From IMG/VR virus record IMGVR_UViG_3300040816_000784: a stretch of 64,000 nucleotides of DNA; one strand, given 5' to 3'. Below are positions 3,162-56,727 of the stretch, one piece after another. This stretch comes from an uncultured virus (IMG/VR IMGVR_UViG_3300040816_000784). Its lineage: Duplodnaviria > Heunggongvirae > Uroviricota > Caudoviricetes. The notes beneath the pieces were generated by a model that did not search any database, was not told the DNA's origin, and saw only the letters and a program-made list of their open reading frames with translations. Numbering within the stretch: the stretch's first letter is position 1; each line of letters starts with the position of its first letter. Position numbers and translations under genes: made by a program.

Positions 3162-3245
3162 TTGTTACTCCTATAGGATTATATTTCATGCATGAATTCA
3201 GACTATGATAAGTCTGGTTCAAGTATATTTATCTTTAATAAGAAA

Positions 3246-5282
3246 TTAGACGTAAGTTACAGTTAGTGTAAATGCACCAATAGTAGCACTTCTATGGCTA
3301 ATACGAGCTCTTAAGGCCAAGTCTGAGGTTTGTGTTGAAGGATAAAGATAGTTAGGTTGTGCTGAATACACACCTGTTGATTCTAAGTCACTTGCGTCTT
3401 CATCCATGTACGCATTTAAGTCACTTGCTGTACCAACTTCTATAGTAGGAGCAGTACCACCTGAGTAGTTAGTTAAGGCTGTTGTTACTTCAACAGCAAC
3501 TTCTATAATTCTACATCCTGGTGATATATTATCTAAGTTGATAGTTTCTATTCCACCAAAACCACCTCCCGGAGCACTAAATGAGTAACTCATTGTTTGT
3601 GCATCTGTGTTAGCACTATCCTGATTACCTACTTCTACCCAACCGCTACCGTCGTATATAAATAGTCCCCATTCGCTATCACCTGCGTTCACAACATAAG
3701 CCATGTCTCCGCCTTGTGCTGTTAGACTATTTCTTGCACTGATATCATTTACAACTGTTACACCACCACTTCTAACACCGTGTTCAATGTAAAGTCCTAA
3801 TGGGAATTGACCATTGTGTACACTATAGATATCTAAATCTGCTGTGGGTGTGCCTACTTGATCTTCCAAGTCAATTGGACCACCATCAGTTCTAATTAGT
3901 TTTAAGAAGTTACCTGTAGTTGCTGTAGATGATAAAGGTAATCCTGTAACACTACTTGGACCAAACATATTGACATTACCTTGAGCATCACCTGATACAT
4001 TGTATAATGTCATTGCGTTTCCGTTTGATTCAGTTAGTCTTATCTCACCACTACCTAAAACACTTACTGATAAGTTAGCAATATTTCCTGCTTCAATGGC
4101 ATTTTTAATATCAGTTGCATCAGCAATACCAGAACCATATGAACCACTACCACTTGCATCGCTGTTTACAGTTATAAGAACATTACCATCACCTGTGTCA
4201 ATATTACCACTAAATGGTATGTAACCACCTAATAAACCGTAATTATATGTATCAGTTGCACTTGTAAGTGTGCCTGGTTCTGCAACTAAACTTGCACTTA
4301 CAGATGTATTTGCTGTATGGTTATTAAAATCTTGTGCTGTAACAGTAGTATTACCACCAGTGAATGTTACATTAGAACCATTTACTTCTAATATGCTGTT
4401 AGCATTAGCCACAGCACTTGCATTACCACTTACTACGTCACTTGATACTGCATCTTTGATCTTTAAGAATATAACTTTACCTGTCTCAGTTGCAGTTAAA
4501 TCACCATCTGTATCGGCATATATGTAGTCACCTATGTTACCAGGTAGACTAGGATTGAAATCTATTATTCTATTTTGAGGCATGACCATAAATTGATTTG
4601 GCCCTGGCCCTGCTACACTCACAACACCAATTGTTCTTGCCATTGTACTTGCATTTGCTTTCTCATATGATCCGGCTTCTGTTACTACAATAACATCACC
4701 ACGAGCAAAACCATGTGCTGTTTTTTCTAATCTAAAGTTCTCAGCAGGATTCATGTATTCAAATCTACTTGTAACATTAGGGAAGAAGTCTGAACTAACA
4801 ACACTTGCTGGAAGTGGATCTAGTAAAGGCTTACCTGCTTCGTTTAATGTAAATAAGATTGCTGTACCTGGTACACTGAATATTGGTGAACCAGTTGCAC
4901 TTCTAAATGTATTGTATCTTAACACATCTTCTATAATACATGTTACACTAGTAGTAGACTTTGAACTAACACTTACTATCTGCATACATCTACCATCCTG
5001 AGAACCAGCAAGCCAATCGCCTACTGATACATCTAGTCCATTGTATTCTCTAGAGTCTCTGGATTTATGTGAACCGTGGTTTTGTGCTGTAACTGTAAAC
5101 GTTACTGAGTATTGATAAAACTTAGGACTGCTTGAGGACTGCCACCATGGGTCACCCTCTCCATCGTTGTGTGGCCAATATGATTCACCTGTGGCACTGG
5201 TAACTGAACATTGTAAAACCTTTGCTGGTTTGTAAATGTCTAACGTACTTGTTGCACTTTTATTATATATTGACTCAGCCAT
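3246..5282 (-). CDS. Putative virion structural protein
   Basis: 678 aa in structural cluster; C-terminal domain resembles that of 23340..24401. Confidence 0.6.
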   Translation of the reverse strand: MAESIYNKSATSTLDIYKPAKVLQCSVTSATGESYWPHNDGEGDPWWQSSSSPKFYQYSVTFTVTAQNHGSHKSRDSREYNGLDVSVGDWLAGSQDGRCMQIVSVSSKSTTSVTCIIEDVLRYNTFRSATGSPIFSVPGTAILFTLNEAGKPLLDPLPASVVSSDFFPNVTSRFEYMNPAENFRLEKTAHGFARGDVIVVTEAGSYEKANASTMARTIGVVSVAGPGPNQFMVMPQNRIIDFNPSLPGNIGDYIYADTDGDLTATETGKVIFLKIKDAVSSDVVSGNASAVANANSILEVNGSNVTFTGGNTTVTAQDFNNHTANTSVSASLVAEPGTLTSATDTYNYGLLGGYIPFSGNIDTGDGNVLITVNSDASGSGSYGSGIADATDIKNAIEAGNIANLSVSVLGSGEIRLTESNGNAMTLYNVSGDAQGNVNMFGPSSVTGLPLSSTATTGNFLKLIRTDGGPIDLEDQVGTPTADLDIYSVHNGQFPLGLYIEHGVRSGGVTVVNDISARNSLTAQGGDMAYVVNAGDSEWGLFIYDGSGWVEVGNQDSANTDAQTMSYSFSAPGGGFGGIETINLDNISPGCRIIEVAVEVTTALTNYSGGTAPTIEVGTASDLNAYMDEDASDLESTGVYSAQPNYLYPSTQTSDLALRARISHRSATIGAFTLTVTYV

Positions 5283-5285
5283 CTA

Positions 5286-8200
5286 TTACGATCCCATTGT
5301 AAAGTATATCCAAGCATGTGAAGATTGTCCAAAGGAACTACTTGCACCTACTTCTGATCTAGTCAAACTCATTGTGATATTAGCAGTTCCAAAATTACCG
5401 TGAGGATCACTTGAACCATCTAGTTTCAATGTTGTGTTCACTGTATTTTGAGTCATATGCTTGATGTTGTATTCACTTGTTGACTGACTATAACCATATG
5501 CCATAATTGCTGTTGGAGGGAAATTATAATTTCCACCAAAGTCAACAACTATTTCACAACTGTTTGAAGCACTATTATTTACTGTAACGTTACCTATGTT
5601 TGTACTAATATTGGAAATACCACCTGTACCTACACTTGTATCAATTGCTCCACCACTGGTATAATTTAATTTGAAATACTCTACACTGGCACCACCGCCA
5701 CCACCTCCGCCTCCGGAGATAGCCTGGGTTGTAACACCTGTAATACGACCTTGTTGGTCGACTGTTATTCTTGCTGATTGTGTACCACTACCATAAGTAC
5801 CTGGAGTAACTGATGTATCTGCTAAGTTTAATGTAGCATCACCAGTTGTGGCACCACCTGTTAAACCTGTTCCTGCTGTAACGGCTGTGATATCTCCACC
5901 ACCGCCAACACTACCTAGTATTGTTGTTAAGTCAACATTACTATTACTACCACTAATAGTAATAACATTACCTGCTAAGTTTAATGTTTGATCGGAGCCA
6001 CCTAATATACTTGTTAAGTCAACATTACCTGATTGTCCTGTTAAACTTATTACATTACCCGATATAGTTAAATCTTGATTGTCGCTTTCGCTTGTTAAGT
6101 ATGAACTTAAATCTGGTGGTGTAAATGTATAAACACCTGTACTATTATTGTATGCTAAACTACCACCGCCACTTGCACTTGCTGTCGAAACACTAAAGTC
6201 TGTAAGTTGTACCCCATCTGCTCCATCACTACCTGCTGGACCTTGTGGGCCTGTTGGACCTTGTATATTACCAACATCTTGTGTTGAAGTATTTGAATAG
6301 TTAAGAACTAAATTACCACCTACTAAACTAGTGCTTGTTATACCAACACCAGCATTACCTTGTGGACCTGTTGTTCCGTCTGCACCCAGTACATTACCAG
6401 CATCTAAAGTTGTGCTGTCATTTAATGTTATTACCAAGTTGCCTGAACCGTTTACTGTTGCTGAACTTACACCAGCATTACCATCACCTTGTGGTCCTAC
6501 ATTACCCTGTGGTCCTTGTGGCCCTGTTGGTCCAGTTGCACCAGTATCACCTTGTGGTCCCTGAGCACCTGTTTGTCCTACTACACTACTAAGGTCAATG
6601 TTAGCACTATCTAGTGTTAAGTAAGTATTGCCACTTAATGCTAGACTAGGCTTACCTGTTAAGTCACTGTAAGTACCAGTAAATGCTACTGTACTTAATT
6701 CTGTATTGCTGTTTGCTAATGCATTGGCTACTTCTGCCAAACTGTCTAAGTTTACATTAGCACCGCCTATAATTCTTGTTTCTAAATTGTCAACGTATGC
6801 CTGCATATTTGTATTGGCAGTTGCTATATCAGAGTCTGTTGCATAATTATTTGTACTTAAATATGAAGCAACATTACTGTCGCCATAATTGCCTGCTACG
6901 TTTCCTAATGCTGATGTTAAGTCTACTGTTGAAGCATTTCCTGAAATACTTATAAGGTTGCCATTTATAGCAATTGATTGTGCATCAGTATCTGCAGATG
7001 CTAATACTGTAGTTAAATCAACTGTGCTACCACTACCACTAATAGTAATTATGTTACCTGATAAACTTAATGTTTGATCACTATCATCTAATAGTGTACT
7101 TAGGTCTACTGAATTTCCACCACTTATACTTAGGTTGCTATTTGCACTATCCCAAGTTAAACTTTGTGTAGTTGCTTGTACGTTTGCAGGAGTAAATGTA
7201 AATGCACCTGCATTGTCATATGCTAAACTGCCATTACCACTTGGTGTTGCAGTTGTAACACTAAAATCTGTTAGGGCAACATTGCTGTTACCACCACTTG
7301 CAGATACGTTTCCGTATTCAAATTTGCTATTGGCCGCATTCCAAAGTAATGCTTGTCCGTTTGCTATGCCACTAATATTACCTATGTCGCTTAGATCTGC
7401 AACACTACTACCACTGATATTTGCCGCGGCTTCACCTGTTGCTGTAATAACAACTTTGTCTGATTCGCCTACAGTAACATCAATACCAGCACCACCTTCG
7501 AATGTGATAGTGTCTAAAGTGCCATCTGCTACTACACTATTACTACCATCTGTGAGTCTACCAAAAGCAAATGCTTGTGGCACAACTGAATCAATAGTAA
7601 TTGTTTCTGCGTTTACATCTGATGTAATAACTACGTTAGCACCTGCTCTAAGGTCTACTTTAGTACTGTTAAATGGTGTTGAACCATTTGTTACAGTAAT
7701 ATTGCTTATAAGTCCTGATGTATTTGCAACATCTACATTGGCTATTAAGGCATCTATTTCTGTTGAACTATAAGTATTTGCCGCCAACATATAGTTTGCC
7801 GCTGGGTGTGAGCCTAAGTTAGTTGCATTAGTGGCCAAGTCTGCTTCACCTCTAAAGTATGTAGCAAACACTTGACTATATTTGTTTGAACTGTTACCTA
7901 AATTGTATAGGTTTGTTATAGCAGGAGCATGGTCTGATACGGAAGTTATTGCTGTTGCCACATGAGCATTAAAAGTAAGATTGTCTACTTTACCAGTAAT
8001 GTCTGTGTTGTTTACAAAAGTTAGTTGTCCGTTGCCATCTGTTGCTAGTATTTGATGTGCATTACCGTCTGTTGTAGGAAATGCTAATCCACCTGCTATT
8101 GAGAAATTTGTTGTTACAAGATTGCTTGAGGTTATAACTCCGTCTGCAATTGATACATTATTGTTTGCACCTAATATTGAAAGTGTAGTACCATCAAATT

Positions 8201-9061: not shown

Positions 9062-9715
9062 TTATCTAATTACCAGACAAGATGTTTTAAACAAAGTAAC
9101 ACCTGGGTGTTTTAGTTTAATAAACAATTCTAAGTCTTCTAATTCTTTTTCTTGCATGTATATAAATCTAGTTCTACGCACAGATCCATATACTTTATAT
9201 TCTTCCAATACGTTTTTTGCTGTGTCTATTGCTTTATGTACTTCTTCTAGTCTTTTAGCATAGTTACTAAAGCCACCACTTCCATAACTATAAGGTAAAA
9301 AGAAATGTACTTTAGTGTCATAATCTTTAAACCACTTTTGTTGTCTAATTTCGTATTCCTGATATCTAGTAGTTTGATTTACTTTTGTTTGTAGCATTTT
9401 AATGTGTGCTTTTGAGACAGGACCACTAATAGATACAACTTGATCGGCAAAAAAATGTAAAAACTCGTCTAGTAATTGTTTAGAATCTAAATATACTATC
9501 CTACTAAATGCTGATCTGATACTAGCATGTTTTGTATGATCAGGATAAAACCAATCAAGTATCTCTGACCAACGTTGACTATCATAAAATATAATATTAT
9601 TTACAAGTTTTACTTTGTATGGATACTTAGAATAATATACTTTATCTGAAGGAGTCAGTTGTGGGTAATCCTTTTTATTCAGCAGTTGTAATTTGTATGC
9701 CGTCGTCATACTCAA
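9062..9715 (-). CDS. Hypothetical protein
   Basis: 217-aa ORF co-oriented with and overlapping the clpA 3' end; start uncertain. Confidence 0.6.
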   Translation of the reverse strand: MSMTTAYKLQLLNKKDYPQLTPSDKVYYSKYPYKVKLVNNIIFYDSQRWSEILDWFYPDHTKHASIRSAFSRIVYLDSKQLLDEFLHFFADQVVSISGPVSKAHIKMLQTKVNQTTRYQEYEIRQQKWFKDYDTKVHFFLPYSYGSGGFSNYAKRLEEVHKAIDTAKNVLEEYKVYGSVRRTRFIYMQEKELEDLELFIKLKHPGVTLFKTSCLVIR

Positions 9716-11855
9716 TCCTTAATTTGGTATCTTTTAAATCTTCAAAAAGCATTTTCTTACTTAATGGTTTTTTAAGTTCACTCTCAAATAATCTTTTAAG
9801 AGGTCTTGCACCCATATTAGGGTTGTATCCTTCTTCAACAAAATATTTTACAGCACTAGCCATTACTTTAACTTTAATGCCTTTTACTTTTGTTTGCACA
9901 TTAAGTTCTTCTTCAAGACGTTTAACAATTTTCTTAATAACATCTGTGCCTAACTTATTAAATTTAATTGTGGCATCTATCCTGTTCCTAAACTCTGGAG
10001 TAAAGAAAGTGTTTACTGCTTTGATGTCTGTGTTCTTTTTCTTTTGATCTCCAAAACCAATCTTAAGTTTTTCTGCATCAGCGGCACCTAAGTTACTGGT
10101 CATTAGCAGTACAACATTTGTAAAGTCTACAGTTTTACCTGTACTACCTGTAAGTCTACCATCGTCCATAACTTGCAGTAACACTTGTAATACTTCTGGT
10201 GCGGCTTTCTCTACTTCATCTAGTAGCAACACACAATTAGGATACTGTTCCACTTCAGCAAGTAGTTGTCCTTGTCCTAGTTTACCTTCAGCATGTCCAA
10301 CATAACCAGGAGGAGCACCAATCAATTTACTCACACTATGACGTTCTTGGTATTCACTCATATCAAAACGTATAAGTTTGCTTTCTAGTTCTTGTGCTAA
10401 TTGTTTTGCTGTTTCAGTTTTACCTGTACCAGTTGGTCCTACTAATAGGAAACTGCCGATTGGCTTATTAGGTTCCCTTAGTCCTGCTTTAGCAACAAAG
10501 ATCGCTTCTACTATTTGATCTACAGCATCATCCTGTCCAAATACTTTTGTTTTAATTCGCTTGTCTAAACTTTTGTATCCTTCAGTACTGTCGATATCAA
10601 TAACATCTTTACCTATGTTACTCATCTTACTAATAACATTCAACACGTCGTCGATAACTACTTCTTCTCTGCCTGCTAGTTTAACAGTTGCACCACTGGC
10701 GTCAATAATATCAACTGCTTTGTCAGGGAAGTATTTATTTTTAATATATCTGTCTGCCAAATCAACACTTTTTTCTAGCAGTTCATCTGCATACTTTACA
10801 CTATGAAACTCTTCAAAGTATGGTTTTAATCCTATAATAATTTTTGTAGTATCTTCAACATTAGTAGGTTCAATATCTACACGTTGAAATCTACGCATTA
10901 GAGCTCTATCTTTTTCAAAGTGTGTGCTATATTCATCACTAGTTGTAGCACCCATAGTAAGTAGTTTACCTCTGCCTAGTATAGGCTTTAACAAGTTAGC
11001 AACGTCTACACTACTACCTCCAGCACTACCGGCACCCATTATCATGTGTATCTCATCAATAAACATAATAACATCTTTTCTCTCTTCTAGGCTCTCTAGG
11101 ACTATTTTAATACGTTCCTCAAAGTCTCCTCTATACCTAGTACCAGCAAGTAAGGCACCAATATCTAGGCTATAAACTGTTTTATCTTTAAGAGCATTGG
11201 GTACTTGACCCTCCACTATTTTCAATGCAAGTCCTTCTGCAATGGCTGTTTTACCTGTGCCAGGTTCACCAATTAGTATCGGATTATTTTTCTTACGCCT
11301 TGCTAGAATATGTACAATATCATTTACTTCTTCAGATCTACCTATTAGTGGATCTATTTCACTTTCTGCGGCTTTCTTATTTAAGTCAATTAAAAATTCT
11401 TCTGCTTCTTTCATACCAGTTTGTGATACACGTTTGGTTAAGCCTTCTACTACCGACAGTCTATCAATACCATTTAATTCACAAATATATTTTGCCATAG
11501 CATCGTCTTCGGATAGTATGCTTACAAATAAGTCTGGTGTGTTTATTTGATCTCTGGCACTAAAGATAACCTGTGCAAATGCACGTTGCATTACACGTTC
11601 TACACTTGTAGTTTTCTTGGGTCTACCCTCATACGGATTCTCTCCTATGAGATTATTTTGCTCTGGATCTTGCAAATAATTTTTTAAATCTTCTTTGGCT
11701 GTTGGCCAATCACATTCTATTGTTTCTAAAAGATCTACAACGTCCTCATCTTCTAATAAGCAATACATTAAATGCTCTAGTGTAACGTACTCGTGTTTCT
11801 GTTCTGATGCTAAGTTTATAGCACCAGTTATAATGTTATCTATTTCGTTTGCCAT
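9675..11855 (-). CDS. clpA: ATP-dependent Clp protease ATPase subunit ClpA
   Basis: N-domain HEYVTLEHL; Walker A motifs GEPGTGKT and GPTGTGKT; GTRYRGDFEER; IGAPPGYVG; KIGFG ClpP-docking loop; no ClpB middle domain. Confidence 0.95.
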   Translation of the reverse strand: MANEIDNIITGAINLASEQKHEYVTLEHLMYCLLEDEDVVDLLETIECDWPTAKEDLKNYLQDPEQNNLIGENPYEGRPKKTTSVERVMQRAFAQVIFSARDQINTPDLFVSILSEDDAMAKYICELNGIDRLSVVEGLTKRVSQTGMKEAEEFLIDLNKKAAESEIDPLIGRSEEVNDIVHILARRKKNNPILIGEPGTGKTAIAEGLALKIVEGQVPNALKDKTVYSLDIGALLAGTRYRGDFEERIKIVLESLEERKDVIMFIDEIHMIMGAGSAGGSSVDVANLLKPILGRGKLLTMGATTSDEYSTHFEKDRALMRRFQRVDIEPTNVEDTTKIIIGLKPYFEEFHSVKYADELLEKSVDLADRYIKNKYFPDKAVDIIDASGATVKLAGREEVVIDDVLNVISKMSNIGKDVIDIDSTEGYKSLDKRIKTKVFGQDDAVDQIVEAIFVAKAGLREPNKPIGSFLLVGPTGTGKTETAKQLAQELESKLIRFDMSEYQERHSVSKLIGAPPGYVGHAEGKLGQGQLLAEVEQYPNCVLLLDEVEKAAPEVLQVLLQVMDDGRLTGSTGKTVDFTNVVLLMTSNLGAADAEKLKIGFGDQKKKNTDIKAVNTFFTPEFRNRIDATIKFNKLGTDVIKKIVKRLEEELNVQTKVKGIKVKVMASAVKYFVEEGYNPNMGARPLKRLFESELKKPLSKKMLFEDLKDTKLRIEYDDGIQITTAE

Positions 11856-35803: not shown

Positions 35804-35916
35804 ATCGTTCATCTCGAAAGAGACGGAAGTAGTTATAAGACGAAGGAACGCCGAAATCGTTCATTCACTCTAAATGTAGCAGTGAACGGAAGTAGGTTAT
35901 AGTACCGAAGGAACGC
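35804..35916 (+). ncRNA. Tandem glnA-motif (glutamine-I) riboswitch, aptamers at 35804-35851 and 35856-35916
   Basis: Each copy reads AUCGUUCA-[P2]-CGGAAGUA-[P3]-GAAGGAACGC; P1 CGUUC/GAACG; P2 UCUC-GAAA-GAGA or UUCACU..AGUGAA; AGUA/GAA E-loop. Confidence 0.88.
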
Positions 35917-35937
35917 ATCTTTGTAAAAGGAGATGAC

Positions 35938-47314: not shown

Positions 47315-47646
47315 AATATGCCTAACTGATATTTTCCTTCATCGCTGATTGCGTCTGGATTCCAAGGTGGATCAAATGTAAGTACTACCTTTACATGATT
47401 TAATCCGTTGACTGCCCTTGTGGCAAACTCTACTTCCATTGGTAGTATTTCTGCGGCTGGACAATTTGGTGAAGTAAGTGTCATTATAACCTGACAGTCA
47501 TATTCTTTGTTTACTTCAACGTTATAAATAAGTCCTAAGTCATAAACGTTTAAATTTATTTCAGGATCAAATACTCTTTTTAAATTTGCTACAACTAAGT
47601 CTAAGAATTCTTCTTGTAATGACTTATCTTCTCTAGTGTCTTCCAT
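47311..47646 (-). CDS. sufT: DUF59 Fe-S assembly protein (SufT-like)
   Basis: VFDPEI..NVYDLGLIY, MTLTSPNCP, FDPPW. Confidence 0.9.
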   Translation of the reverse strand: MEDTREDKSLQEEFLDLVVANLKRVFDPEINLNVYDLGLIYNVEVNKEYDCQVIMTLTSPNCPAAEILPMEVEFATRAVNGLNHVKVVLTFDPPWNPDAISDEGKYQLGIL

Positions 47647-48830
47647 AATCCCTCTACTAGTTGTACACAATCGTGTTCGTTGTTATATGGTGCTGAACTA
47701 ACTCTCAATACACCGGTGTTTTCTTTATTAAATCTTCTACTGGCAGGCTGGGCACATAAGTGACCTGTCCTAACACAGACTTTATCAAAGTTTAAATATG
47801 ATGCAATATCACTTGGATTTATGCCTGGCGTTACAAAACTGTATACACTTCGTGGACCTATATCACCAATTAGTTTTAATTGTTCAATATCAAACAAACC
47901 TTTATCATTTAACATGTTAAAGAAGTCTGCTTCACATTCTTGTATATCTTTGTAACTAATATCTTGTATCCATTTAGCCGCGGCTCCTATGGCATGTACT
48001 CCTGCTACGTTGGGTGTACCTGCTTCTACTCTTTTGAAGTCAGGGTATAATGAATACTGACTGAAGTCTGCAAAACTTACAGTTCCCCCACCTATGTCAT
48101 GACTGCCTTCAGCAAGATCTACAAATCCGCCTCTGTGAAATAATACACCGGTACCAGTAGTAGCATACATTTTATGTCCACTAAATACTAGCCAGTCAAT
48201 ATTATTTTTTGCTACACTAATTGGCTCGTGTGCTATACTTTGACATACATCTAATATAACATCACAGTCATACTCTTTGGCAATCCTAATCATATCTTGC
48301 CATTTTAATTTTATACCAGTTAAGTTACTTTGTGTTAAAAATGACACAATGCTACCTGGATTATCTTTTACTGCTTTTGTGAAATCTTCTATACTGACAT
48401 CACCGTGATCACTTGCTGGCACTACAACGATTTCATATTTGTGTTGTAGCCAAGGCAATATGTTACTGTGATGTTCAAGTTCTGTTAGTATTACTTTACG
48501 TTTACTTTCTTTATAATGTCTAGCAATAATATTAAGTCCTTGTGTTGTACCAGCAGTAAAACTTACTTCACTAATATCAGACTCAATTAAATCTGCAATA
48601 TGTTGTCTTGCTTGATCAAACTTATCACTTGCTATACTACTAGTTTCAAAATCACCTCTATGTACATTTGCTCTGTAGTTGTAATGATAATCACTGACAG
48701 CCTTAATTGCACTATCAACTGTTTGACTACTAGCGGCATTATCTAGATATACTAAATCAGAATATGCTAAACTAGGGAAACAATTTCTTATCTCCTTTAT
48801 TGCTTTTGTTTTATTGTATACGTTTAGCAT
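47601..48830 (-). CDS. sufS: Cysteine desulfurase, group II
   Basis: YLDNAASSQ, ANVHRG, EHHSNILPW, SGHKM, EAGTP, RTGHLCAQP. Confidence 0.93.
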   Translation of the reverse strand: MLNVYNKTKAIKEIRNCFPSLAYSDLVYLDNAASSQTVDSAIKAVSDYHYNYRANVHRGDFETSSIASDKFDQARQHIADLIESDISEVSFTAGTTQGLNIIARHYKESKRKVILTELEHHSNILPWLQHKYEIVVVPASDHGDVSIEDFTKAVKDNPGSIVSFLTQSNLTGIKLKWQDMIRIAKEYDCDVILDVCQSIAHEPISVAKNNIDWLVFSGHKMYATTGTGVLFHRGGFVDLAEGSHDIGGGTVSFADFSQYSLYPDFKRVEAGTPNVAGVHAIGAAAKWIQDISYKDIQECEADFFNMLNDKGLFDIEQLKLIGDIGPRSVYSFVTPGINPSDIASYLNFDKVCVRTGHLCAQPASRRFNKENTGVLRVSSAPYNNEHDCVQLVEGLWKTLEKISHYKKNS

Positions 48831-50080
48831 AAAAAACTCTCAATTAAAATTTCTTCTATGTTTTCAACACCTCGGCTTTGTAAGTAATACTTTTGATGTT
48901 CATTTATATTACTAATAGTACAACCATGTTGGCATTGTATTTCTTTTGTTTTAATATCTAGTATTGGTCTAGTATGCATTTTAGTATTCTTGTTTAACAT
49001 TAGATTTTGATTGTTCATAGTACCATTAAAATTTGTACTCATTGAACCAACATCATAACGACCAATAAAACTAGTGTTGGCGTATTCGTTACCAACATTT
49101 TTAATATCTATATTACTGTAATTATCAACATCGTTGCTAATATGATGTATGAACTGGTGATAATCGTTTCCTTTGTGAATATTGTTTCTACCTATCACTT
49201 CAACCTTGTTACCAGATGAACTCTGTATGTAAAAATTTTCTTGTGTATATTGGCTACCAGTGTTTGTAGATTTAATTGTTAGTTCGCTATTAGGGTGGCA
49301 AATAAATACACTATCAAACAAACTCCAACCACCTTTATCTTTTGTTGTTCTATCTATTTCAAGTTTACTACCTTCACGTAAAATATAAATGCTGTAATTC
49401 ATTTGTCCAGCACTAGTTCTAACTTTTTCTTTTAGTTTTACACTAACGTTATGTTGTATATCAAACATAGTTGTATTGCTGGATAATGTGTTTTCTTTAA
49501 GTTCATTTAAGTAATTTACAGTCAATGGTTTCTTTTCATACAACTGTTTACTACTAGCAGGAAATACCATTATGTTTACAAAAGGACTAAGTGAATATGT
49601 AGTGTTTGTAAAATTATCCATTTGCTTGATATACTTTATATACTCCTTTTGTTTTGAAGTATTAGTTGTAATAGCATCAAGTATAGTTACACTAGGCGAC
49701 CTATTGTGAGAGATATTGTTACTAGCAAGAACTGTGCCATCTACAATAACCATTTCATTTGATTTATCTGCTACCCATTCAAAATCACCATAAGATGATT
49801 TTCTATCTGTTCTAGGAGCAATCTCTAAACCATATAGTTTATGTAGATTAGAAAAATTAAATTGTTCGCTTTTAGGATTAGGCAACCCTGTTTGTTTAAG
49901 ATATTTTAAATTATCTATATATGGTTTTTCAAAAACATTAGCATAACTTACAACATTTTTATCATCAAGTAATCCTGGTAATAATGTTTCTGTGGTGAAT
50001 TCAAACAACTCAGATAATTTGTAGTTGTCTGTTTTTTGAGGGTCTGCTAGTAATACTTCTGCAAATAAATTCTTATACAT
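48824..50080 (-). CDS. sufD: SufD-like protein (divergent)
   Basis: GLPNPKSEQFNFSNL; C-terminal TRPILDI..IQCQHGCTI...YYLQSRG; position between sufC and sufS. Confidence 0.82.
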   Translation of the reverse strand: MYKNLFAEVLLADPQKTDNYKLSELFEFTTETLLPGLLDDKNVVSYANVFEKPYIDNLKYLKQTGLPNPKSEQFNFSNLHKLYGLEIAPRTDRKSSYGDFEWVADKSNEMVIVDGTVLASNNISHNRSPSVTILDAITTNTSKQKEYIKYIKQMDNFTNTTYSLSPFVNIMVFPASSKQLYEKKPLTVNYLNELKENTLSSNTTMFDIQHNVSVKLKEKVRTSAGQMNYSIYILREGSKLEIDRTTKDKGGWSLFDSVFICHPNSELTIKSTNTGSQYTQENFYIQSSSGNKVEVIGRNNIHKGNDYHQFIHHISNDVDNYSNIDIKNVGNEYANTSFIGRYDVGSMSTNFNGTMNNQNLMLNKNTKMHTRPILDIKTKEIQCQHGCTISNINEHQKYYLQSRGVENIEEILIESFLC

Positions 50081-50768
50081 TTTCAAACCCACTACTAAAA
50101 ATTTTATCTGCTAATGACTTATCACCAATTTGTACACCGTCTTTTTTAAGTAAGACAACAGCATCTGGGTTTAAACCATCAATGAGTTTTTCGTAGTGAG
50201 TAACAACAACCAATGTGTTGTTTTCGTTTTTCCAGGTAGATAGTTTTTCTATAAGTGACTTTATACCGTCAACATCTAAACCACTATCTGGTTCATCTAA
50301 CATTGCAATTTTAGTGTCTAACATAAGCATTTGTATGAGCTCATTCTTTTTCTTTTCGCCACCACTTGCGTCTGTGTTTAAGTTTCTTTTATCCCATTCT
50401 TCTGGCAAGCCTAATTGTGTACTAATATCTCTAAACTTATCTAAGTTTTCTTTTAAGTCGATTGCTTTAATATTGTTTGCTTGTCTGATAAACTGGAAGT
50501 TACTTAATCCTGGAATACTAGTAGGTGCTTGAAAACCTATAAAGATTCCTAGTTTTGCACGTTCATCAGTTTCAAGTTCTGTTAAGTCTATACCATTAAA
50601 TTCTACATCACCGTGTGTATCAAGATCAGGTCTTCCCATGATACCATGTAATAATGTGCTTTTGCCTACGCCATTAGCACCCATAACAACATAAGTCTTA
50701 CCTTCCTCAAAGGTAATATCAACATTGCTGAATATATCTTTAATACTAAAATTTTGTAGTTTTAACAT
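50073..50768 (-). CDS. sufC: Fe-S assembly ABC ATPase
   Basis: GANGVGKST, SGGEKKKNE, LDEPDSGLDVD, VTHY. Confidence 0.95.
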   Translation of the reverse strand: MLKLQNFSIKDIFSNVDITFEEGKTYVVMGANGVGKSTLLHGIMGRPDLDTHGDVEFNGIDLTELETDERAKLGIFIGFQAPTSIPGLSNFQFIRQANNIKAIDLKENLDKFRDISTQLGLPEEWDKRNLNTDASGGEKKKNELIQMLMLDTKIAMLDEPDSGLDVDGIKSLIEKLSTWKNENNTLVVVTHYEKLIDGLNPDAVVLLKKDGVQIGDKSLADKIFSSGFENV

Positions 50769-50774
50769 AAGGTT

Positions 50775-50803
50775 ATTATATACTATTTCTCTTCGCTTGT
50801 CAA
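50775..50803 (-). promoter_or_regulatory. Consensus sigma70 promoter for sufCDST (leaderless)
   Basis: TTGACA-17 nt-TATAAT, 6 nt before ATG 50768. Confidence 0.85.
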
Positions 50804-50941
50804 TTTTAAAATATAGTTATTGGCATCTTCTTCGGTGAGAAATTTTCTCTCCTTAATGATAACATTAGCATCATTATATAAAACTGCTCTATACGATATT
50901 TTATCACCTTCAAAATGTGTTGTAACAACTTGCCAATTCAT
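50783..50941 (-). CDS. 52-aa ORF between sufB and sufC (not in ORF track)
   Basis: [56 protein letters not shown] overlap with sufB stop. Confidence 0.65.
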
Positions 50942-52383
50942 CCTACTGCTCCTTCTAATGTAACACCTAATAAACCATTCGCCTCAGCGGCAAACTCTAA
51001 AGGAAGTTTTTGAAAAACGTCCTTACAAAAACCATTTACAATCAAGTTCATTGCATCGTCTTCACTTAATCCTCTGCTTTGCAAATAATACATTTGCTCT
51101 TCACTGATTTTACCAGCACTTGCTTCATGCTCTAAAACAGCAGAATCGTTTTGACATGTTACATAAGGTAATGTAAGTGCTCTACTATCCTGTAGCATTA
51201 AACTATCACACTTAGTATAGTTCCTGGCATTGTGAGCACCTGGATTTACTTTAACAGAACCTCTATATGTATTTGTACTATCGCCAAAACTAATACCTTT
51301 AGATATAATGGTGCTTTTGGTGTTCTTACCAATGTGTATCATTTTAGTTCCTGTGTCTGCTTGTTGTTTACCTTTGGTGACAGCAACACTAAAAAATTCT
51401 CCTATACTGCCTTCGCCTTTTAATATACAACTTGGATATTTCCAAGTTACTGCTGAACCAGTTTCAACCTGTGTCCAACTTACTTTTGAATTCTTGCCTT
51501 CACACTTTGCACGTTTAGTAACAAAATTATATACTCCACCTACGCCGTTCTCATCTCCTGGATACCAGTTTTGTACTGTTGAATATTTTATTTCAGCATT
51601 ATCTAGGGTCACTAGCTCTACACACGCCGCATGTAACGTGTTTTCATCGTATGCTGGTGCTGTACACCCTTCTAAGTAACTAACGTAACTGTCCTCGTCT
51701 GCTATAATAAGTGTGCGTTCAAACTGCCCTGTGTTACGAGCATTTATGCGGAAATATGTATTAAGTTCCATAGGACATCTTACACCCTTTGGAATATAGC
51801 AAAATGTTCCGTCTGTGAATACTGCTGAGTTTAGTGTAGCAAAGTAATTATCTGTATATGGTATAACACTACCTAAATACTTTTTTACTAAGTCTGGATG
51901 TGATTGTATGGCTTCGCTGATGCTACCAAATACAATACCATACTTTTCTAGTTCTGCTTTGAATGTTGTAGCAACACTAACACTATCAAATACTGCGTCA
52001 ATGGCTACTGAAGGAATAACATTTGGATCTTTTTCAATACCAAGTAATGCGTCACGTTCGTGTAATGGTACACCTAACTTTTCAAATGTATCAAATATTT
52101 CTTGTGGGATATCATCTTTGTCTCTGCTTTTAGGTGCTGAATAATAACTGAGGGCCTGATAGTCAATTGGATCATAATTTAATTCACTCCAATCAGGCTC
52201 AGCCATTTCTTGCCAACGTTTAAATGCTTTTAGTCTAAATTCCAATAACCATTCGGGCTCTTCTTTAATTGCACTGATATTTCTTATAGTGGATTCATCA
52301 AGGCCAGGAGGTAAACTTACCGAATCTGTTTCGGTACTAAACCCTTCTTTGTATTTGGTTTGATTTAAATTATTTACTGTCAT
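50938..52383 (-). CDS. sufB: Fe-S cluster scaffold SufB
   Basis: [50 protein letters not shown]. Confidence 0.97.
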
Positions 52384-52679
52384 TCTACTCGTTCAACTTT
52401 AAGTTGCAAAGGATGTCCTGATGCTCTACTTATAGCAATGGCTTCAGTACATTTTTGATCTGCAATCTCATGATTATATGTACCGGCAATAGCACTTCCT
52501 TTGTTGTGAACAAGCATTGTTAAATCTTTCGCTGTATTAAGATTTCTATTAAAAATTTCTACTAGGATTCTAATTACAAAATCCATAGGAGTAAAATCAT
52601 CGTTAAATATGATTACATTATAGTTAGAGGGATATCGTAGTTCTGTTCTAACTTTAGTTTTTGTTTGTTGTTTTGACAT
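52380..52679 (-). CDS. clpS: Clp protease adaptor ClpS
   Basis: [28 protein letters not shown]. Confidence 0.93.
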
Positions 52680-52682
52680 ATA

Positions 52683-52886
52683 CTATTTACTGTGTGGTGG
52701 TAACTTTGCTTCTATGAACCATTCGTGTTTTTGCTTTACCGGATTATACTTCTTTAATTTTAACTTAATATTTTCAGAAGTCAACCTTTTTGTTTTCACT
52801 GCGGTGTAATGGTAGGTGTGACTATCTCTAGTTTCACCTTCAGGTATCATATATACTGTAGTTCGTCTCTTGTCTTTCTTTGCCAT
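52683..52886 (-). CDS. rpmG: Ribosomal protein bL33 (no zinc-binding cysteines)
   Basis: MAKK...YHYTAVKTKR...KLKLKKYNPVKQKHEWFIEAK. Confidence 0.8.
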   Translation of the reverse strand: MAKKDKRRTTVYMIPEGETRDSHTYHYTAVKTKRLTSENIKLKLKKYNPVKQKHEWFIEAKLPPHSK

Positions 52887-52947
52887 AAATCTACTCAATA
52901 AAAAGGGGAGAACAGTTCTCCCGTCTCCCCAATATTTACCTATAGAT

Positions 52948-53391
52948 CTACTTGATTGAAATCTTTTGTGGTTTCATTGCATCAGGAACATTCTTAAACA
53001 ATGAAATTCTCAAAATACCGTCTTCAAGTTTGGCATCTTTAACTTCTACATACTCTGCTAATTTGAAAGTTCTCACGAAGTTTCTTTCAGCAATACCCTT
53101 ATGTAACCATTCTCTATTGTCACTGTCAAGTACTTCTGACTTACCAGTAATTTTTAGTGTGCCATCTTCAAGTTCAATATCAATGTCTGCTTTCTTAAAT
53201 CCTGCAACTGCAAGAGTAATTTCATAGACATCTTCTGCATCTTTTGAGATGTTGTAAGGGGGATAACCAGATGTATTTACAAATGAAGGTTCATTAAAGA
53301 ATTCATTTACAAGTTGGTCGAAGCCAATTGAGGCTTTATAAAGTGGGGAAAGTGTGTCGGTCGTGACACGGAATTGTTGTTTTGCTACCAT
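52948..53391 (-). CDS. Small heat-shock protein (Hsp20/IbpA-like)
   Basis: GYPPYNI, LAVAGF, LHKGIAERNF, LEDGIL. Confidence 0.95.
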   Translation of the reverse strand: MVAKQQFRVTTDTLSPLYKASIGFDQLVNEFFNEPSFVNTSGYPPYNISKDAEDVYEITLAVAGFKKADIDIELEDGTLKITGKSEVLDSDNREWLHKGIAERNFVRTFKLAEYVEVKDAKLEDGILRISLFKNVPDAMKPQKISIK

Positions 53392-53464
53392 AATAATCTC
53401 CTTAAATTAAGCAAGTTTATATTCTATTTTCCTAAGATGTTTAAACCCAATTGGCGAATAAACA

Positions 53465-53838
53465 AATCGTCTTTAGCAGGGCATTCGTTAGTGTGTGTCC
53501 TGTCCTGCTAAATCCTTCCCTAACTTCGCTTTCTACTAACAGGTGTTGCCATCTATTAGTCTGTACTTGGTAGGGCCAAGTTGTATTTCTACACGTGGTC
53601 GATTAGGCCCGTGCTCTTTTGAAGACTTATATTGCAAAGCCCGAGCACTTTTGAAGATCTAATCTTCCTAGCCTCTTATTACTATCCAGTCACAATCATC
53701 CGTAGTAGGCAAATTTCACTTACGATCCTTTTGCCCTTACTTCGATTGCTCCCTTCGTTTGCACATCGAGGGCAATTTTGATTTGCAGTAGACTTTAGTT
53801 TCTTACGATTCTATTGCCCTTGCATTTCTAAATTGCAA
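53465..53838 (-). ncRNA. Candidate large structured ncRNA, class unassigned
   Basis: ORF-free, less AT-rich region with about 9 helices, GNRA loops, two 19-nt internal repeat pairs; upstream TATAAATA box. Confidence 0.7.
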
Positions 53839-53841
53839 AGT

Positions 53842-53888
53842 TATTTATACAACTTATATATTATATAGTGTTTTTTTGGTAAAAATCA
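53842..53888 (-). promoter_or_regulatory. T4-type late box plus sigma70-like promoter in front of the ncRNA/hsp20 unit
   Basis: Exact TATAAATA at 53842-53849; TTGATT-18 nt-TATAAT further upstream. Confidence 0.65.
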
Positions 53889-53920
53889 ACCTATTTTTGC
53901 AAAAAACCATAAGTATTTGC

Positions 53921-54868
53921 ATGATTTTCCATAAACATAGCCATGTTGGGGTGATTGGTGATAGAAATATACAGATTTTAGAACACATTCAAAACCAATT
54001 ACCAGGGTGGCATATCATAGATGCAACCTACTTATTTAGACTAAAACCAGTATATTGGCAACACCCAGATAATAGATTTTTGTATAATGATACTATTCCT
54101 AATAGAAGATTACTTGTACAACAATTAGATCCTGGTACTTACTTAAAAAATAATGAATTCATGGATCAATTGAATTTTAATCATTTGCCATGTGTAAGTG
54201 ATGTTACATGTGATTGGAATTTTTGGGCATGGTTGTATGGACAAGACAGAGAATATTATAACTTGAATTCTATTCCATTAAATTTAAAAGATGACTTTAA
54301 TCACTTTTTGTTTTTTAATAAGAAAGCACCATTACATAGAAAACATGCAATAGATAATATAATAAACCATGACCTAACTGATTATGGCATTGTAACTGTT
54401 GATGATGGTGAACGTTATATGACTTTTGAAGGCAACACCAGAGAACCTACAGACTACGGTGGTCAATTATTTAACGATCACAACAAGACACCGCCTGATG
54501 GTGGTTTAGGTAATAAAGATGTAGTTGCAAACACCTTCTGTTACATTGTAGGAGAAACTACTTTTAATGATAGATTTCTAAGTGAAAAAACTTGGAAGCC
54601 TATTATAGCAAAAAGACCTTTCTTACATTTACATCCAGAAAAGTACAAGGCATTACAGGATATGGGATTCAAAACATTTGATTGTTTATGGGACGAAGAA
54701 CGTGATTGGTTTGAAAACTTATTACATCTAACTACATGTAACAAACAGCAAGTACAGGATATGTATGATTCAGTACAAGATATACTAGATTATAATTATG
54801 ACTACTTTTGGGGAGAGTTCCAAGAGAAAAATATTGCTAATTTGAATCAGTACCTTCTTCAGATCTAA
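53921..54868 (+). CDS. Putative glycosyltransferase-like protein
   Basis: FFNKK..HR, ET...FLSEKTWKPI..RPF...MGFKTF; start taken at ATG 53921. Confidence 0.55.
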   Translation: MIFHKHSHVGVIGDRNIQILEHIQNQLPGWHIIDATYLFRLKPVYWQHPDNRFLYNDTIPNRRLLVQQLDPGTYLKNNEFMDQLNFNHLPCVSDVTCDWNFWAWLYGQDREYYNLNSIPLNLKDDFNHFLFFNKKAPLHRKHAIDNIINHDLTDYGIVTVDDGERYMTFEGNTREPTDYGGQLFNDHNKTPPDGGLGNKDVVANTFCYIVGETTFNDRFLSEKTWKPIIAKRPFLHLHPEKYKALQDMGFKTFDCLWDEERDWFENLLHLTTCNKQQVQDMYDSVQDILDYNYDYFWGEFQEKNIANLNQYLLQI

Positions 54869-55238
54869 GTGCTTCTTCTATGTAAGGACCTAAATCATGT
54901 ATAGGCAACTTGTTACTAAACTTTAATTTAAACATCATCATATCTTCTTTAGACCATGGTCTAGTTCTAAGTGATGCTTTTGCAATCACATTCACATACA
55001 ATGTCATACTATCTACAACAGACTCGTCCCAAGGATTGCCATAGTTTATTTCAAACTGATAATCAGTGTCCATACTCTCAAACCACTTTCTAAAAGGTAT
55101 AAGAGCATTGTGGATACCTGCTTCAGTTATCCATTCATAGTCTGCATCATCATTGCATGGAGCACAAATCAACAATACTGAATCTATAGTATTCTCGTGA
55201 ATATTCTTCTTTAAAAAGTTTTCTTTATTATCTGCCAT
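54837..55238 (-). CDS. Hypothetical protein
   Basis: 133-aa ORF. Confidence 0.6.
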   Translation of the reverse strand: MADNKENFLKKNIHENTIDSVLLICAPCNDDADYEWITEAGIHNALIPFRKWFESMDTDYQFEINYGNPWDESVVDSMTLYVNVIAKASLRTRPWSKEDMMMFKLKFSNKLPIHDLGPYIEEALRSEEGTDSN

Positions 55239-55243
55239 AAACG

Positions 55244-55450
55244 TTATGATTCGTCTTCGCCATAACGTCCACGTTCACGATTGCCATCACTGTTAAGTTC
55301 CGTAAGGTCTTGTTGTTTGTGTTTGAAATTTTTTTCTACTTCTGGTGTTTTCTTTCCCCAAATCCTTTCCCAAGAATCTGCGTAAGTGCTATTGTCACTG
55401 CTTACTTTAGATTGAATACTGTCACCAGTAATGTCATTTTTTGTTGCCAT
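55244..55450 (-). CDS. Hypothetical phage protein
   Basis: 68-aa ORF with AAGGA SD. Confidence 0.65.
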   Translation of the reverse strand: MATKNDITGDSIQSKVSSDNSTYADSWERIWGKKTPEVEKNFKHKQQDLTELNSDGNRERGRYGEDES

Positions 55451-55637
55451 TTTCCTTTGCCTTATTAGTGCGTTCCTCTGCTGTTACTAGAACCGCTTCA
55501 CAATGAGGACATGTTAAATCAATATCTAACATATCACAAATTGCTTGGTGTTTTACAAAATTTTCTTTAGGTTCTTTTTCCATACTATTCCACATTTCTG
55601 TTGGTACAGGGTAACCCACGTGCTTAATAGTTTGCAA
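55434..55637 (-). CDS. Small protein with CPHC motif
   Basis: 67-aa ORF overlapping neighbours. Confidence 0.55.
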   Translation of the reverse strand: MQTIKHVGYPVPTEMWNSMEKEPKENFVKHQAICDMLDIDLTCPHCEAVLVTAEERTNKAKENGNKK

Positions 55638-55890
55638 TGAACTTTAACTCATTATCAACTTCAGGATCATTCAAATGCCCTTTGACATCTGGATAGTCTT
55701 CGTTGTAATATATTTCGTTACCTTTGAGTAAGGCAAGTTCCCATAGACCTTTTTTGCCACCGTAACTATATTTATGCTTAATTACACTAGCACCGTAACC
55801 ATTCTTGAACTTGTACACATATTGTATACCACCGTATTCAGGTTTGTGTGTTTCAAAAGATTCTAACAGGTCGCTGTCTCTCATACTCAT
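55624..55890 (-). CDS. Hypothetical phage protein
   Basis: FKNGYGASVI...SYGG..GLWELA. Confidence 0.7.
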   Translation of the reverse strand: MSMRDSDLLESFETHKPEYGGIQYVYKFKNGYGASVIKHKYSYGGKKGLWELALLKGNEIYYNEDYPDVKGHLNDPEVDNELKFIANY

Positions 55891-55899
55891 TTTATTTTC

Positions 55900-56727
55900 C
55901 TATTTTAATAATTTATTATTATCATACATATGACAGATATCGCTAAATGTGTAATCATTATTGCCCATAAATCTTAGGCTCAATCTATTACCACTACTTG
56001 CATGTACTTTATGCCAACTACTTAGAGGTATAATGTACCCACAATCATATTTCACTTTTTCGCCAACCACGTTTAAACTATCTGCATGTTCTTTAGATAA
56101 TAAAAAATCTCCATGTGATGCTGTCAGTATATCCTGTTTTAACGTTATAGGTTCTAACCCTTCTGCATCTGATTGTTGCAGTAAGTTATGTTTTTGTTTA
56201 TGTTCTGATAGTAACTTTTTAGATAGATTTTCTAGCTCAATTGAACCTTTAGCAAATTGTACACTAGTTTCTTCTTTCTCACCATAAAAAGGAAAATTAA
56301 ATGCAAAATTACTTCTATTGTTTAAGTACTCACGCATCTGATCATCAGCCCAATAAGGATGTCCTTCTCTGTGCCAAAGAGTTGTTCCATGAAATTTAAT
56401 TAAAGTTATAGGAAAATGTACTTTACCAAATCCTCTTTGTGGAGACATAAGAAGATTACTTTGAAAAGTATCTAGGAACCATTCATAAAGTGTTCTACCT
56501 ACTCTATTACCGTTAGGTACTGCTAATAAATAAGGAAGTTCACTGTCACCTGATTTTATAAGTTGAGGCAACCACATAAAACTTGTAGTAGCAGTTGGTT
56601 TATCTACATGATAACTGCCGTCTGCTATATCTATATCCTGATCGTCAAAAACATCTTCCCACTTTATAGGTAACTCTAGATTAGGTAAATCTATAAAAGG
56701 ATGTGTTTCTTTATCTTCCCTCAACAT
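55900..56727 (-). CDS. Putative 2OG-Fe(II) oxygenase-like protein
   Basis: WHRE (HxE), FNFP, WHKV, RLSLRF. Confidence 0.5.
   Translation of the reverse strand: MLREDKETHPFIDLPNLELPIKWEDVFDDQDIDIADGSYHVDKPTATTSFMWLPQLIKSGDSELPYLLAVPNGNRVGRTLYEWFLDTFQSNLLMSPQRGFGKVHFPITLIKFHGTTLWHREGHPYWADDQMREYLNNRSNFAFNFPFYGEKEETSVQFAKGSIELENLSKKLLSEHKQKHNLLQQSDAEGLEPITLKQDILTASHGDFLLSKEHADSLNVVGEKVKYDCGYIIPLSSWHKVHASSGNRLSLRFMGNNDYTFSDICHMYDNNKLLK

Follow-up and report, generated by a model that had tools for sequence, protein, structure and literature searches.

The hsp20 locus

We analysed a window of 64,000 nucleotides (nt; 64 kb) of DNA from an uncultured virus of the Caudoviricetes (IMG/VR record IMGVR_UViG_3300040816_000784). 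Positions 53465–53849 of this window had been flagged, in a preliminary description made from the sequence alone, as a candidate structured RNA upstream of a small heat-shock gene. The gene, hsp20, occupies 52948–53391 on the minus strand and encodes an IbpA-like protein of 147 amino acids (Pfam HSP20, E = 5.9e-19). An intergenic gap (53392–53920) separates it from a divergent plus-strand open reading frame (ORF); its length is 484–529 nt, with TTG 53876 and ATG 53921 as the alternative starts of that ORF. The description of this region as the largest ORF-free stretch in the window is borne out among ORFs of at least 80 amino acids. The divergent ORF (53921–54868, plus strand, 315 amino acids from the ATG) is without a Pfam or PHROG family.

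The gap holds a real, conserved and abundantly covered modular leader RNA of about 465 nt, with at least nine helices and a pseudoknot. The 385 flagged nt form its upstream four-fifths and belong to no catalogued RNA family. From 5′ to 3′ the order is the ATAAATA box, P0, A1, an insert specific to the window, A2, module C, a GAAA hairpin, P1 and the pseudoknot enclosing P2, then P3, P4, P5 and the AUG. The features of the transcription unit, with the evidence for each, are as follows.

53860–53889, minus strand: sigma-70-type promoter (TTGATT, 18-nt spacer, TATAAT; 10/12 in a consensus scan)
53842–53849, minus strand: (T)ATAAATA box, exact TATAAATA, just 3′ of the −10 element
53772–53836, minus strand: candidate helix P0, GCAAUUU (53836–53830)/AAAUUGC (53778–53772), enclosing A1; in the free and constrained folds
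53784–53824, minus strand: hairpin A1, with basal UGCA/UGCA, GGGC/GUCU, UAG/CUA and UC-GUAA-GA (GNRA tetraloop); covariation
53701–53741, minus strand: hairpin A2, a second copy of the A1 type, with GGGCAAA/UUUGCCU and C-GUAA-G; covariation
53603–53662, minus strand: module C, three stacked helices; covariation
53582–53593, minus strand: hairpin UGUA-GAAA-UACA; in both folds and also in the relatives L001 and L035
53518–53581, minus strand: P1 hairpin (53581–53565) and H-type pseudoknot (loop 53575–53571 with 53522–53518), enclosing P2; covariation
53532–53561, minus strand: P2 stem, with a GCAA loop at 53549–53546; covariation
53473–53511, minus strand: P3 stem UUUAGCAGG/CCUGCUAAA with a 23-nt loop (ACAGGACACACACUAACGAAUGC); covariation
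53437–53465, minus strand: P4, A-U-rich stem with apex C[G]CC-N4-GGG, the first hairpin of a ROSE-like unit, outside the flagged coordinates; covariation
53394–53418, minus strand: P5, UUGCU (53414–53410) facing the Shine–Dalgarno sequence AGGAG (53402–53398) with one unpaired G, upstream of the AUG at 53391–53389; conservation
53382–53386, minus strand: AGCAA, complementary to UUGCU, in hsp20 codons 2–4; conserved
53354–53369, minus strand: 5-bp hairpin GUGUC/GACAC in hsp20 codons 8–13; 205 of 205 cells paired
52906–52922, minus strand: intrinsic terminator just after hsp20, GGGAGAAC-TGT-TCTCCC followed by a T run
Minus strand: helix UCGAU-UGC/GCAAUCGA, proposed in the preliminary description from the window sequence

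The promoter spacer (TTTTTACCAAAAAAA-CAC) is kept among relatives, and the extended promoter motif occurs once in the window. A terminator scan of the minus strand between this promoter and the hsp20 terminator found no terminator-like site. The exact TATAAATA had been noted before and is present as described. The columns of the box are near-invariant in 11 leaders, and the box occurs in most of the long-class leaders (defined below) that were displayed. It would be either an additional promoter of the phage type or the RNA's 5′ end.

Folding, strand and family searches

The flagged stretch is strongly structured. On the minus strand 53465–53849 folds to −102.4 kcal/mol, against −81.3 ± 5.1 kcal/mol in 100 dinucleotide shuffles (z = −4.12), none of which was as low. 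The plus strand gives z = −3.02, and the GC fraction is 0.39–0.425 in the stretch against about 0.275–0.375 in its flanks. G-U pairs had been put forward in favour of the minus strand and do assign the RNA to it, since they are kept in all or most sequences: one column pair (189–204) is G-U in 79 of 79 core sequences and another (29–80) in 68 of the 103 module C sequences. When the leader is constrained to the covarying helices it folds to −111.7 kcal/mol, compared with a free optimum of −116.9 kcal/mol; the cost is only 5 kcal/mol, and the free optimum itself holds most of these helices. A 19-nt unit reported to occur twice does so, with 17 of 19 positions identical.

The suggestion that the RNA is new holds against Rfam, in that the flagged stretch matches no family at its gathering score and the only matches in the window are two glutamine riboswitches elsewhere. 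At E ≤ 10 the region 53300–54000 returned only mir-722, RefA9 and ROSE_3, all far below their thresholds. No Rfam covariance model of a riboswitch, ROOL, GOLLD, HEARO, OLE, RNase P, intron or ribozyme family matched the leader, and ARAGORN found no tRNA or tmRNA gene in the window, in keeping with the earlier remark that signatures of RNase P, tmRNA and introns are missing.

Covariation of the leader modules

Covariation was computed on MAFFT alignments made without fitting to a structure, with two controls: 500 shuffles per alignment, and slid pairing partners. Because related sequences are present in the alignments, significance is overstated by the shuffle control, and the slid controls give the fairer comparison. 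In the core alignment of about 80 sequences, 84.3% of cells are paired, compared with 72.0% after shuffling (0/500 as high) and 39–48% with slid partners, and 30 of 47 pairs change on both sides. For module C (103 sequences) the corresponding figures are 91.1% against 78.0% shuffled (0/500) and 19–44% slid, and for the A-type hairpins (69 copies) 76.1% against 57.3% (0/500 as high) and 29–45%, with changes on both sides in 9 of 13 pairs. Judged from these alignments, the leader modules have been kept by compensatory mutation, and each is predicted to fold independently.

Most of the helices that the preliminary description had drawn from the single sequence recur among these covarying elements. 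Its ACUUGG/CCAAGU helix is P1, with changes on both sides in one of four pairs among the homologues and 80.4% of cells paired. The possible pseudoknot between CCCUA (53575–53571) and UAGGG (53522–53518) changes on both sides at all five pairs, with 86.3% of cells paired, a conservative count because the sequences of the window type are shifted by one column there. The GCAA-capped stem corresponds to P2 (8/9 pairs changing on both sides) and UUUAGCAGG/CCUGCUAAA to P3 (8/8), the loop columns of which are largely invariant. P4 changes on both sides at 6 of 10 pairs (88.6% of cells paired). In P5 91% of cells are paired and the pairs are mostly invariant; the one pair of nine that changes on both sides swaps between U-A and A-U (53 and 21 sequences).

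The long bulged hairpin placed at 53601–53664 is module C. Its helices are C-P1 (53662–53656/53609–53603), C-P2 (GUGCUC, 53648–53643, with GAGCAC, 53616–53611) and C-P3 (53641–53638/53627–53624). All cells (100%) of the 6-bp duplex C-P2 are paired, and two pairs swap between A-U and U-A; neither strand had been constrained by the search pattern at the two variable positions. The two 7-nt bulges have the same sequence, UUCAAAA (53655–53649 and 53623–53617); each faces a single G, which gives the module a pseudo-two-fold symmetry. The module C covariance model found no second copy in the window. A hairpin GAAGAU/AUCUUC, considered on the 5′ side of module C, was replaced by the covarying helix C-P1.

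The GGCAAA/UUUGCC helix is part of A2 and covaries in the A-type alignment. The A-type covariance model scores A1 at 61.8 bits and A2 at 54.9 bits, both copies being in its training set, and found no further copy in the window at E ≤ 0.5. Two proposed helices, UUGCA/UGCAA and AGGGCAAU/AUUGCCCU, find no support: they are complementary in the window sequence, compete with the covarying A1 and, by eye, are not kept in relatives. Counterparts of P0 in relatives (GUAAU/AUUAC and UACAAUUUA/UAAAUUGUA) were recognized by eye.

The ROSE-like 3′ end and elements within the coding region

In passages of PMC3669281, short ROSE-like elements are described as 60 to more than 100 nt long with two to four hairpins, and are recognized by a U(U/C)GCU imperfectly paired with the Shine–Dalgarno sequence within the hairpin that is 3′-proximal. 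P5 has this arrangement, and neither its UUGCU nor its AGGAG varies across 79 distinct sequences. The position is also that of ROSE elements, in the 5′ untranslated region (UTR) of a small heat-shock gene, with HSP20 directly downstream. The whole leader of about 465 nt does not fit the size and architecture of ROSE_3; only 53465–53394 does. In relatives ROSE_3 matches span P4 and P5 at 25.4–34.8 bits (E from 0.16 to 6.6e-4), below threshold, in 4 of the 12 loci scanned. The end of the leader resembles the ROSE kind and would be a new variant of it.

Two further elements lie within the hsp20 ORF. AGCA[AG] occurs no more than 27 nt from the AUG in 77 of 79 long-class ORFs, by way of AAG-CAA, AGC-AAA or GCA-AAA. 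The lysine codon before glutamine is AAG in 57 of the 77, compared with 26% of 385 lysine codons, and with three of 18 Lys-Gln pairs, in 15 ORFs of the window; where AAA is used, serine or alanine codons provide the AGCA[AG]. On these counts AGCAA looks to be under selection as a second partner of UUGCU. The hairpin at codons 8–13 is 100% paired in 41 distinct sequences, compared with 81.5% after shuffling, and two of its pairs covary. The compensating changes alter the protein, Val, Ile or Phe changing together with Asp or Glu. The conserved AGCAA and the covarying hairpin indicate that the regulated region reaches into the hsp20 ORF. The idea that the P3 loop pairs with this hairpin's 5′ arm was set aside, as by eye it fits the window and L003 and does not fit L010 or L011.

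Homologues and exchange of modules

The phage is without a cultured relative among 50,697 phage records: blastn against these gave no match, either with the leader in a distant mode or with the 8 kb around it in a near mode. The best identities of its Hsp20 to isolates are below 50%. A search of viral contigs with Hsp20 yielded 32 loci, of which L001 matches the leader over its whole length, at 92%, and ten more match the two ends.

Pattern scans of the RNA, which are blind to hsp20, extended this set. In the first scan 18 of 117 matches carry the core; the 99 without it are mostly chance matches. All 15 distinct cores displayed run, by eye, into an hsp20-type ORF. Scans for two loop classes gave 15 and nine loci. 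The module C pattern was found at 102 viral loci, one species-genome locus and at least 120 metagenome loci. Among the matches listed, 205 loci have a module C with the double repeat, and 176 of these have an Hsp20-type N-terminus downstream. In 13 of the others the ORF is cut by the end of the locus, 15 have too little DNA, and one (L337) is without hsp20.

From the ATAAATA box to the AUG the leaders measure 267–563 nt, and they fall into two classes. In the long class (87 loci among the matches listed) the core is present and 197–344 nt separate module C from the AUG. In the short class module C is followed directly by two ROSE-like hairpins, with 61–77 nt to the AUG. The A-type hairpin occurs in two copies in the window and in one or two in relatives. 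Covariance-model scans of L001–L015 found two A-type hairpins without module C in L005, L009, L011, L013 and L014, and module C alone, without A-type hairpins, in L010. Since the combinations differ among relatives, the modules are interchangeable units and not parts of one obligate fold.

Short-class promoters (for example in L183, L230 and L234) consist of CCCCTTGAAA, about 13 nt and CCCTATAT. We take these to resemble the sigma-32 heat-shock consensus of E. coli, to which the window promoter (GGTTGATTT ... ACACTATAT) has a weaker likeness. The sole double-repeat match for module C in 185,579 species genomes (L276) is a short-class hsp20 leader on a 121-kb contig binned to a Sphingobacteriales metagenome-assembled genome; the contig may be that of a phage.

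RNA abundance

The flagged stretch was found in 14 DNA runs and six metatranscriptome runs, and four RNA runs, as Logan contigs, were compared over 50500–56500. Metatranscriptome coverage had been suggested as a check on the candidate. All four runs contain contigs with 0–1 differing letters over 52945–53814, at depths of 152–6656, and one RNA contig of 717 nt spans 52945–53637; long pieces of this kind demonstrate the phage's presence in the runs. Contigs of the flanking genes in the same runs have depths of 2.6–9.5, and such near-silent flanks speak against carry-over of DNA. Among the RNA contigs listed, none extends past 53814 on the promoter side and cover of the flanking genes is incomplete, which is not read as a result. 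Loose ends at 53608/53609 belong to other variants in the same RNA runs. A joint between 53669 and 53772, seen in all four runs, was considered as an isoform and is read as other strains: its shorter side is 28–29 letters long and matches relatives without the middle modules.

Function of the leader

We favour the reading, with a probability of roughly 0.6, that the flagged stretch is the upstream part of a multi-domain folded 5′ leader of a monocistronic hsp20 mRNA. Translation of hsp20 would be gated at the hairpin of UUGCU and the Shine–Dalgarno sequence, with AGCAA in codons 2–4 as an alternative partner for UUGCU. The upstream modules would act in cis, protecting and stabilizing the 5′ end and presenting structured binding sites. 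Their most likely binder would be the IbpA-like Hsp20 itself, and expression of hsp20 would then track both temperature and the load of unfolded protein. The preliminary description had offered two readings, a very complex leader for hsp20 and an independent large noncoding RNA. The former suits the locus, given one promoter, one terminator, an RNA that runs into the ROSE-like pair of hairpins and the 176 of 205 loci with hsp20 downstream. The latter is disfavoured here, although L337 and a step in RNA depth, both described below, keep it alive.

Small heat-shock proteins are built from dimers, and Hsp20 may bind the two-fold symmetric module C. For the upstream modules, binding of the leader by its own Hsp20 is our leading guess. 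In passages of PMC10474464, E. coli IbpA is described as binding its structured 5′ UTR and thereby repressing its own translation, with R93 irreplaceable and Y34, R97 and K98 contributing. When aligned with Salmonella IbpA and IbpB (L397), the Hsp20s of the window and of three short-class phages have arginine in the R93 and R97 columns and tyrosine at Y34, which IbpB does not. We name Hsp20 as the most likely binder because it keeps the arginine that E. coli IbpA needs for binding and repressing its own leader.

Several observations weigh against this reading. ROSE_3 (RF02523) matches the window at 53386–53436 with 16.2 bits against a gathering score of 43 (E = 1.2), so that the family threshold is missed. 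Masking of the Shine–Dalgarno sequence is not predicted by the nearest-neighbour model: the mean probability of its being unpaired goes from 0.57 (4 °C) to 0.70 (42 °C), in a partition function that takes no account of non-canonical pairs, on which ROSE hairpins depend. The minimum free energy structure pairs UUGCU with AGCAA in the ORF instead of with the Shine–Dalgarno sequence, and P5 is so nearly invariant that covariation says little about it. The equivalent of K98 is threonine in the window Hsp20. The varying order and number of modules speaks against one obligate global fold. Two further points concern the linkage to hsp20. In L337 (520–905, plus strand) two A-type hairpins, module C and the core as far as P3 are followed by no P4, P5 or hsp20 within the locus, where a convergent PhoH-like gene ends at 918. 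Depth in the four RNA runs is 2110–6656 over 53629–53814 and 152–613 over 53188/52945–53637, a 10–20-fold step in every run, in contigs that carry a single depth figure each, sum related strains and have no strand or end information.

The last two points are also those that speak for a stable, abundant noncoding RNA, processed from the leader (about 53819–53626, or all of 53849–53473) and acting in trans, for instance as a scaffold or a sponge of an RNA-binding protein from host or phage, with hsp20 as its usual neighbour. This is a minority view that we nevertheless take seriously. In run X15 the stretch is joined to sequencing-adapter letters at 53819 and at 53625, and an adapter-joined end occurs also at 52945. 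The P3 kept by L337 is compensated relative to its nearest relatives, the A-type hairpin is repeated, and a module-C-like hairpin follows a gp32-like gene in L229. However, with one depth figure per contig and related strains in the runs, the depth step and the adapter-joined ends are only hints of processing. The candidate ends at 53625–53637 lie in the apical part of module C and not in its 6-bp duplex, which bears on any reading of that duplex as an RNase III site. Moreover, no terminator-like site separates the upstream part from hsp20, of the 177 loci among the matches listed whose DNA is long enough, 176 have the linkage to hsp20, the set of modules differs between relatives, and L337 may be a deletion remnant. 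We hold it to be rather doubtful that the upstream modules (the GUAA hairpins, module C and the pseudoknot core) are a new class of interchangeable phage RNA building blocks that form an abundant RNA with a function of its own. Such an RNA might be a multivalent platform that captures dimer-based Hsp20 oligomers, as a sensor or buffer of the chaperone pool, or a sponge for a host RNA-binding factor; the thermometer would be its last, optional module, and L337 and L229 would be free-standing uses.

The core (the pseudoknot, the GCAA hairpin and the stem with the 23-nt loop) has many invariant unpaired nucleotides amid covarying helices. Invariant unpaired nucleotides framed by covarying helices and a pseudoknot are the typical pattern of an aptamer, and the core always lies directly 5′ of the hairpins facing the ribosome-binding site. 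It could on these grounds be a riboswitch aptamer for a small molecule or ion, with P4 and P5 as the expression platform. We consider this improbable, since no Rfam riboswitch matched at E ≤ 10, short-class leaders, which lack the core, precede genes of the same kind, core and platform were not found to pair in an alternative way, and a heat-shock gene suggests no obvious ligand. Least probable by far is that the stretch is not an RNA element at all and either holds a small gene for a protein or owes its apparent structure to base composition. ORFs of 33–49 amino acids do overlap it on both strands, but a folding z of −4.1, compensatory changes in five helices or modules, G-U pairs specific to the minus strand, and the gain and loss of whole modules among relatives, with insertions and deletions that are not multiples of three, all argue for an RNA. 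A sponge of the CsrA type was discarded, GGA not being conserved in the hairpin loops as judged from the sequences.

In L229 (890–980, plus strand) the module-C-like hairpin has one UUCAAAA bulge, scores 31.1 bits (E = 6.6e-6) and is followed by a U run. It lies between the gp32-like gene and a convergent gene, where the motif also looks like a terminator-like element away from hsp20.

Comparison with known systems

The closest described counterparts are the ROSE_3 thermometers of Pseudomonas ibpA, which likewise place a two-hairpin unit before a small heat-shock gene with U(U/C)GCU imperfectly facing the Shine–Dalgarno sequence. The phage-borne leader differs in its length of about 465 nt and in its pseudoknot, and only its last 75 nt or so (53465–53394) are similar. 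Bacterial ibpA is under layered control by a sigma-32 promoter, an RNA thermometer and self-repression. The likeness to the E. coli ibpA 5′ UTR lies in the IbpA-like protein downstream, with its equivalents of Y34, R93 and R97, and in the richness of the phage leader in structure, IbpA being described in passages of PMC10474464 as preferring RNA rich in secondary structure. Module C and the other modules are without a described counterpart in ibpA leaders, and the residue at K98 differs.

ROOL, GOLLD, HEARO and OLE are large ornate noncoding RNAs of bacteria and phages. Like them, the leader is hundreds of nucleotides long, contains a pseudoknot, GNRA tetraloops and numerous helices, is associated with phages and is highly abundant in RNA libraries. 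It differs from them in its link to a single downstream gene and in being assembled from modules that can be exchanged.

Full-text searches of a single literature collection, at the level of listings and abstracts, brought up no paper that describes this leader RNA or a thermometer of a phage hsp20. Supplementary file 5 of PMC10690425, in the entries drawn on here, contains at least 17 unnamed structured-RNA candidates (for example DNAVirus_2151, DNAVirus_3649 and DNAVirus_4684) no more than 25 bp upstream of viral HSP20/IbpA genes, with 2–110 members each. The main text of that paper makes no mention of hsp20, heat shock or thermometers. Compared by catalogue description only, some of these candidates may coincide in part with the hairpins closest to hsp20.

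In marine phages, small heat-shock genes rank among the most common of the host-like genes. Our results suggest that a widespread clade of uncultured marine phages, represented by more than 200 loci, has enlarged a bacterial leader of 60–100 nt four- to eight-fold by means of covarying, swappable modules that are absent from Rfam, in an RNA that ocean RNA libraries cover at high depth. If these modules do bind the chaperone or another factor, the leader would offer a tractable natural case of RNA evolving by modules and of a phage controlling the proteostasis of its host. Its size and its GNRA and pseudoknot content make it suited to structure determination.

Other features of the window

The phage genes include those of tail-fibre-like proteins, and a 71-amino-acid ORF has a sub-threshold match to ribosomal protein L33 (21.4 bits against a cutoff of 25). 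The two glutamine riboswitch aptamers (Rfam RF01739, 58 and 60 bits) stand in tandem at 35804–35919 on the plus strand, with no ORF of at least 80 amino acids directly 3′ of them on the same strand. Grouped around hsp20, the segments 9675–11855 and 47601–52898, on the minus strand, encode a ClpA-like ATPase, ClpS and a Suf operon (SufS, SufD, SufC and SufB), genes of protein quality control and of the Fe–S kind.

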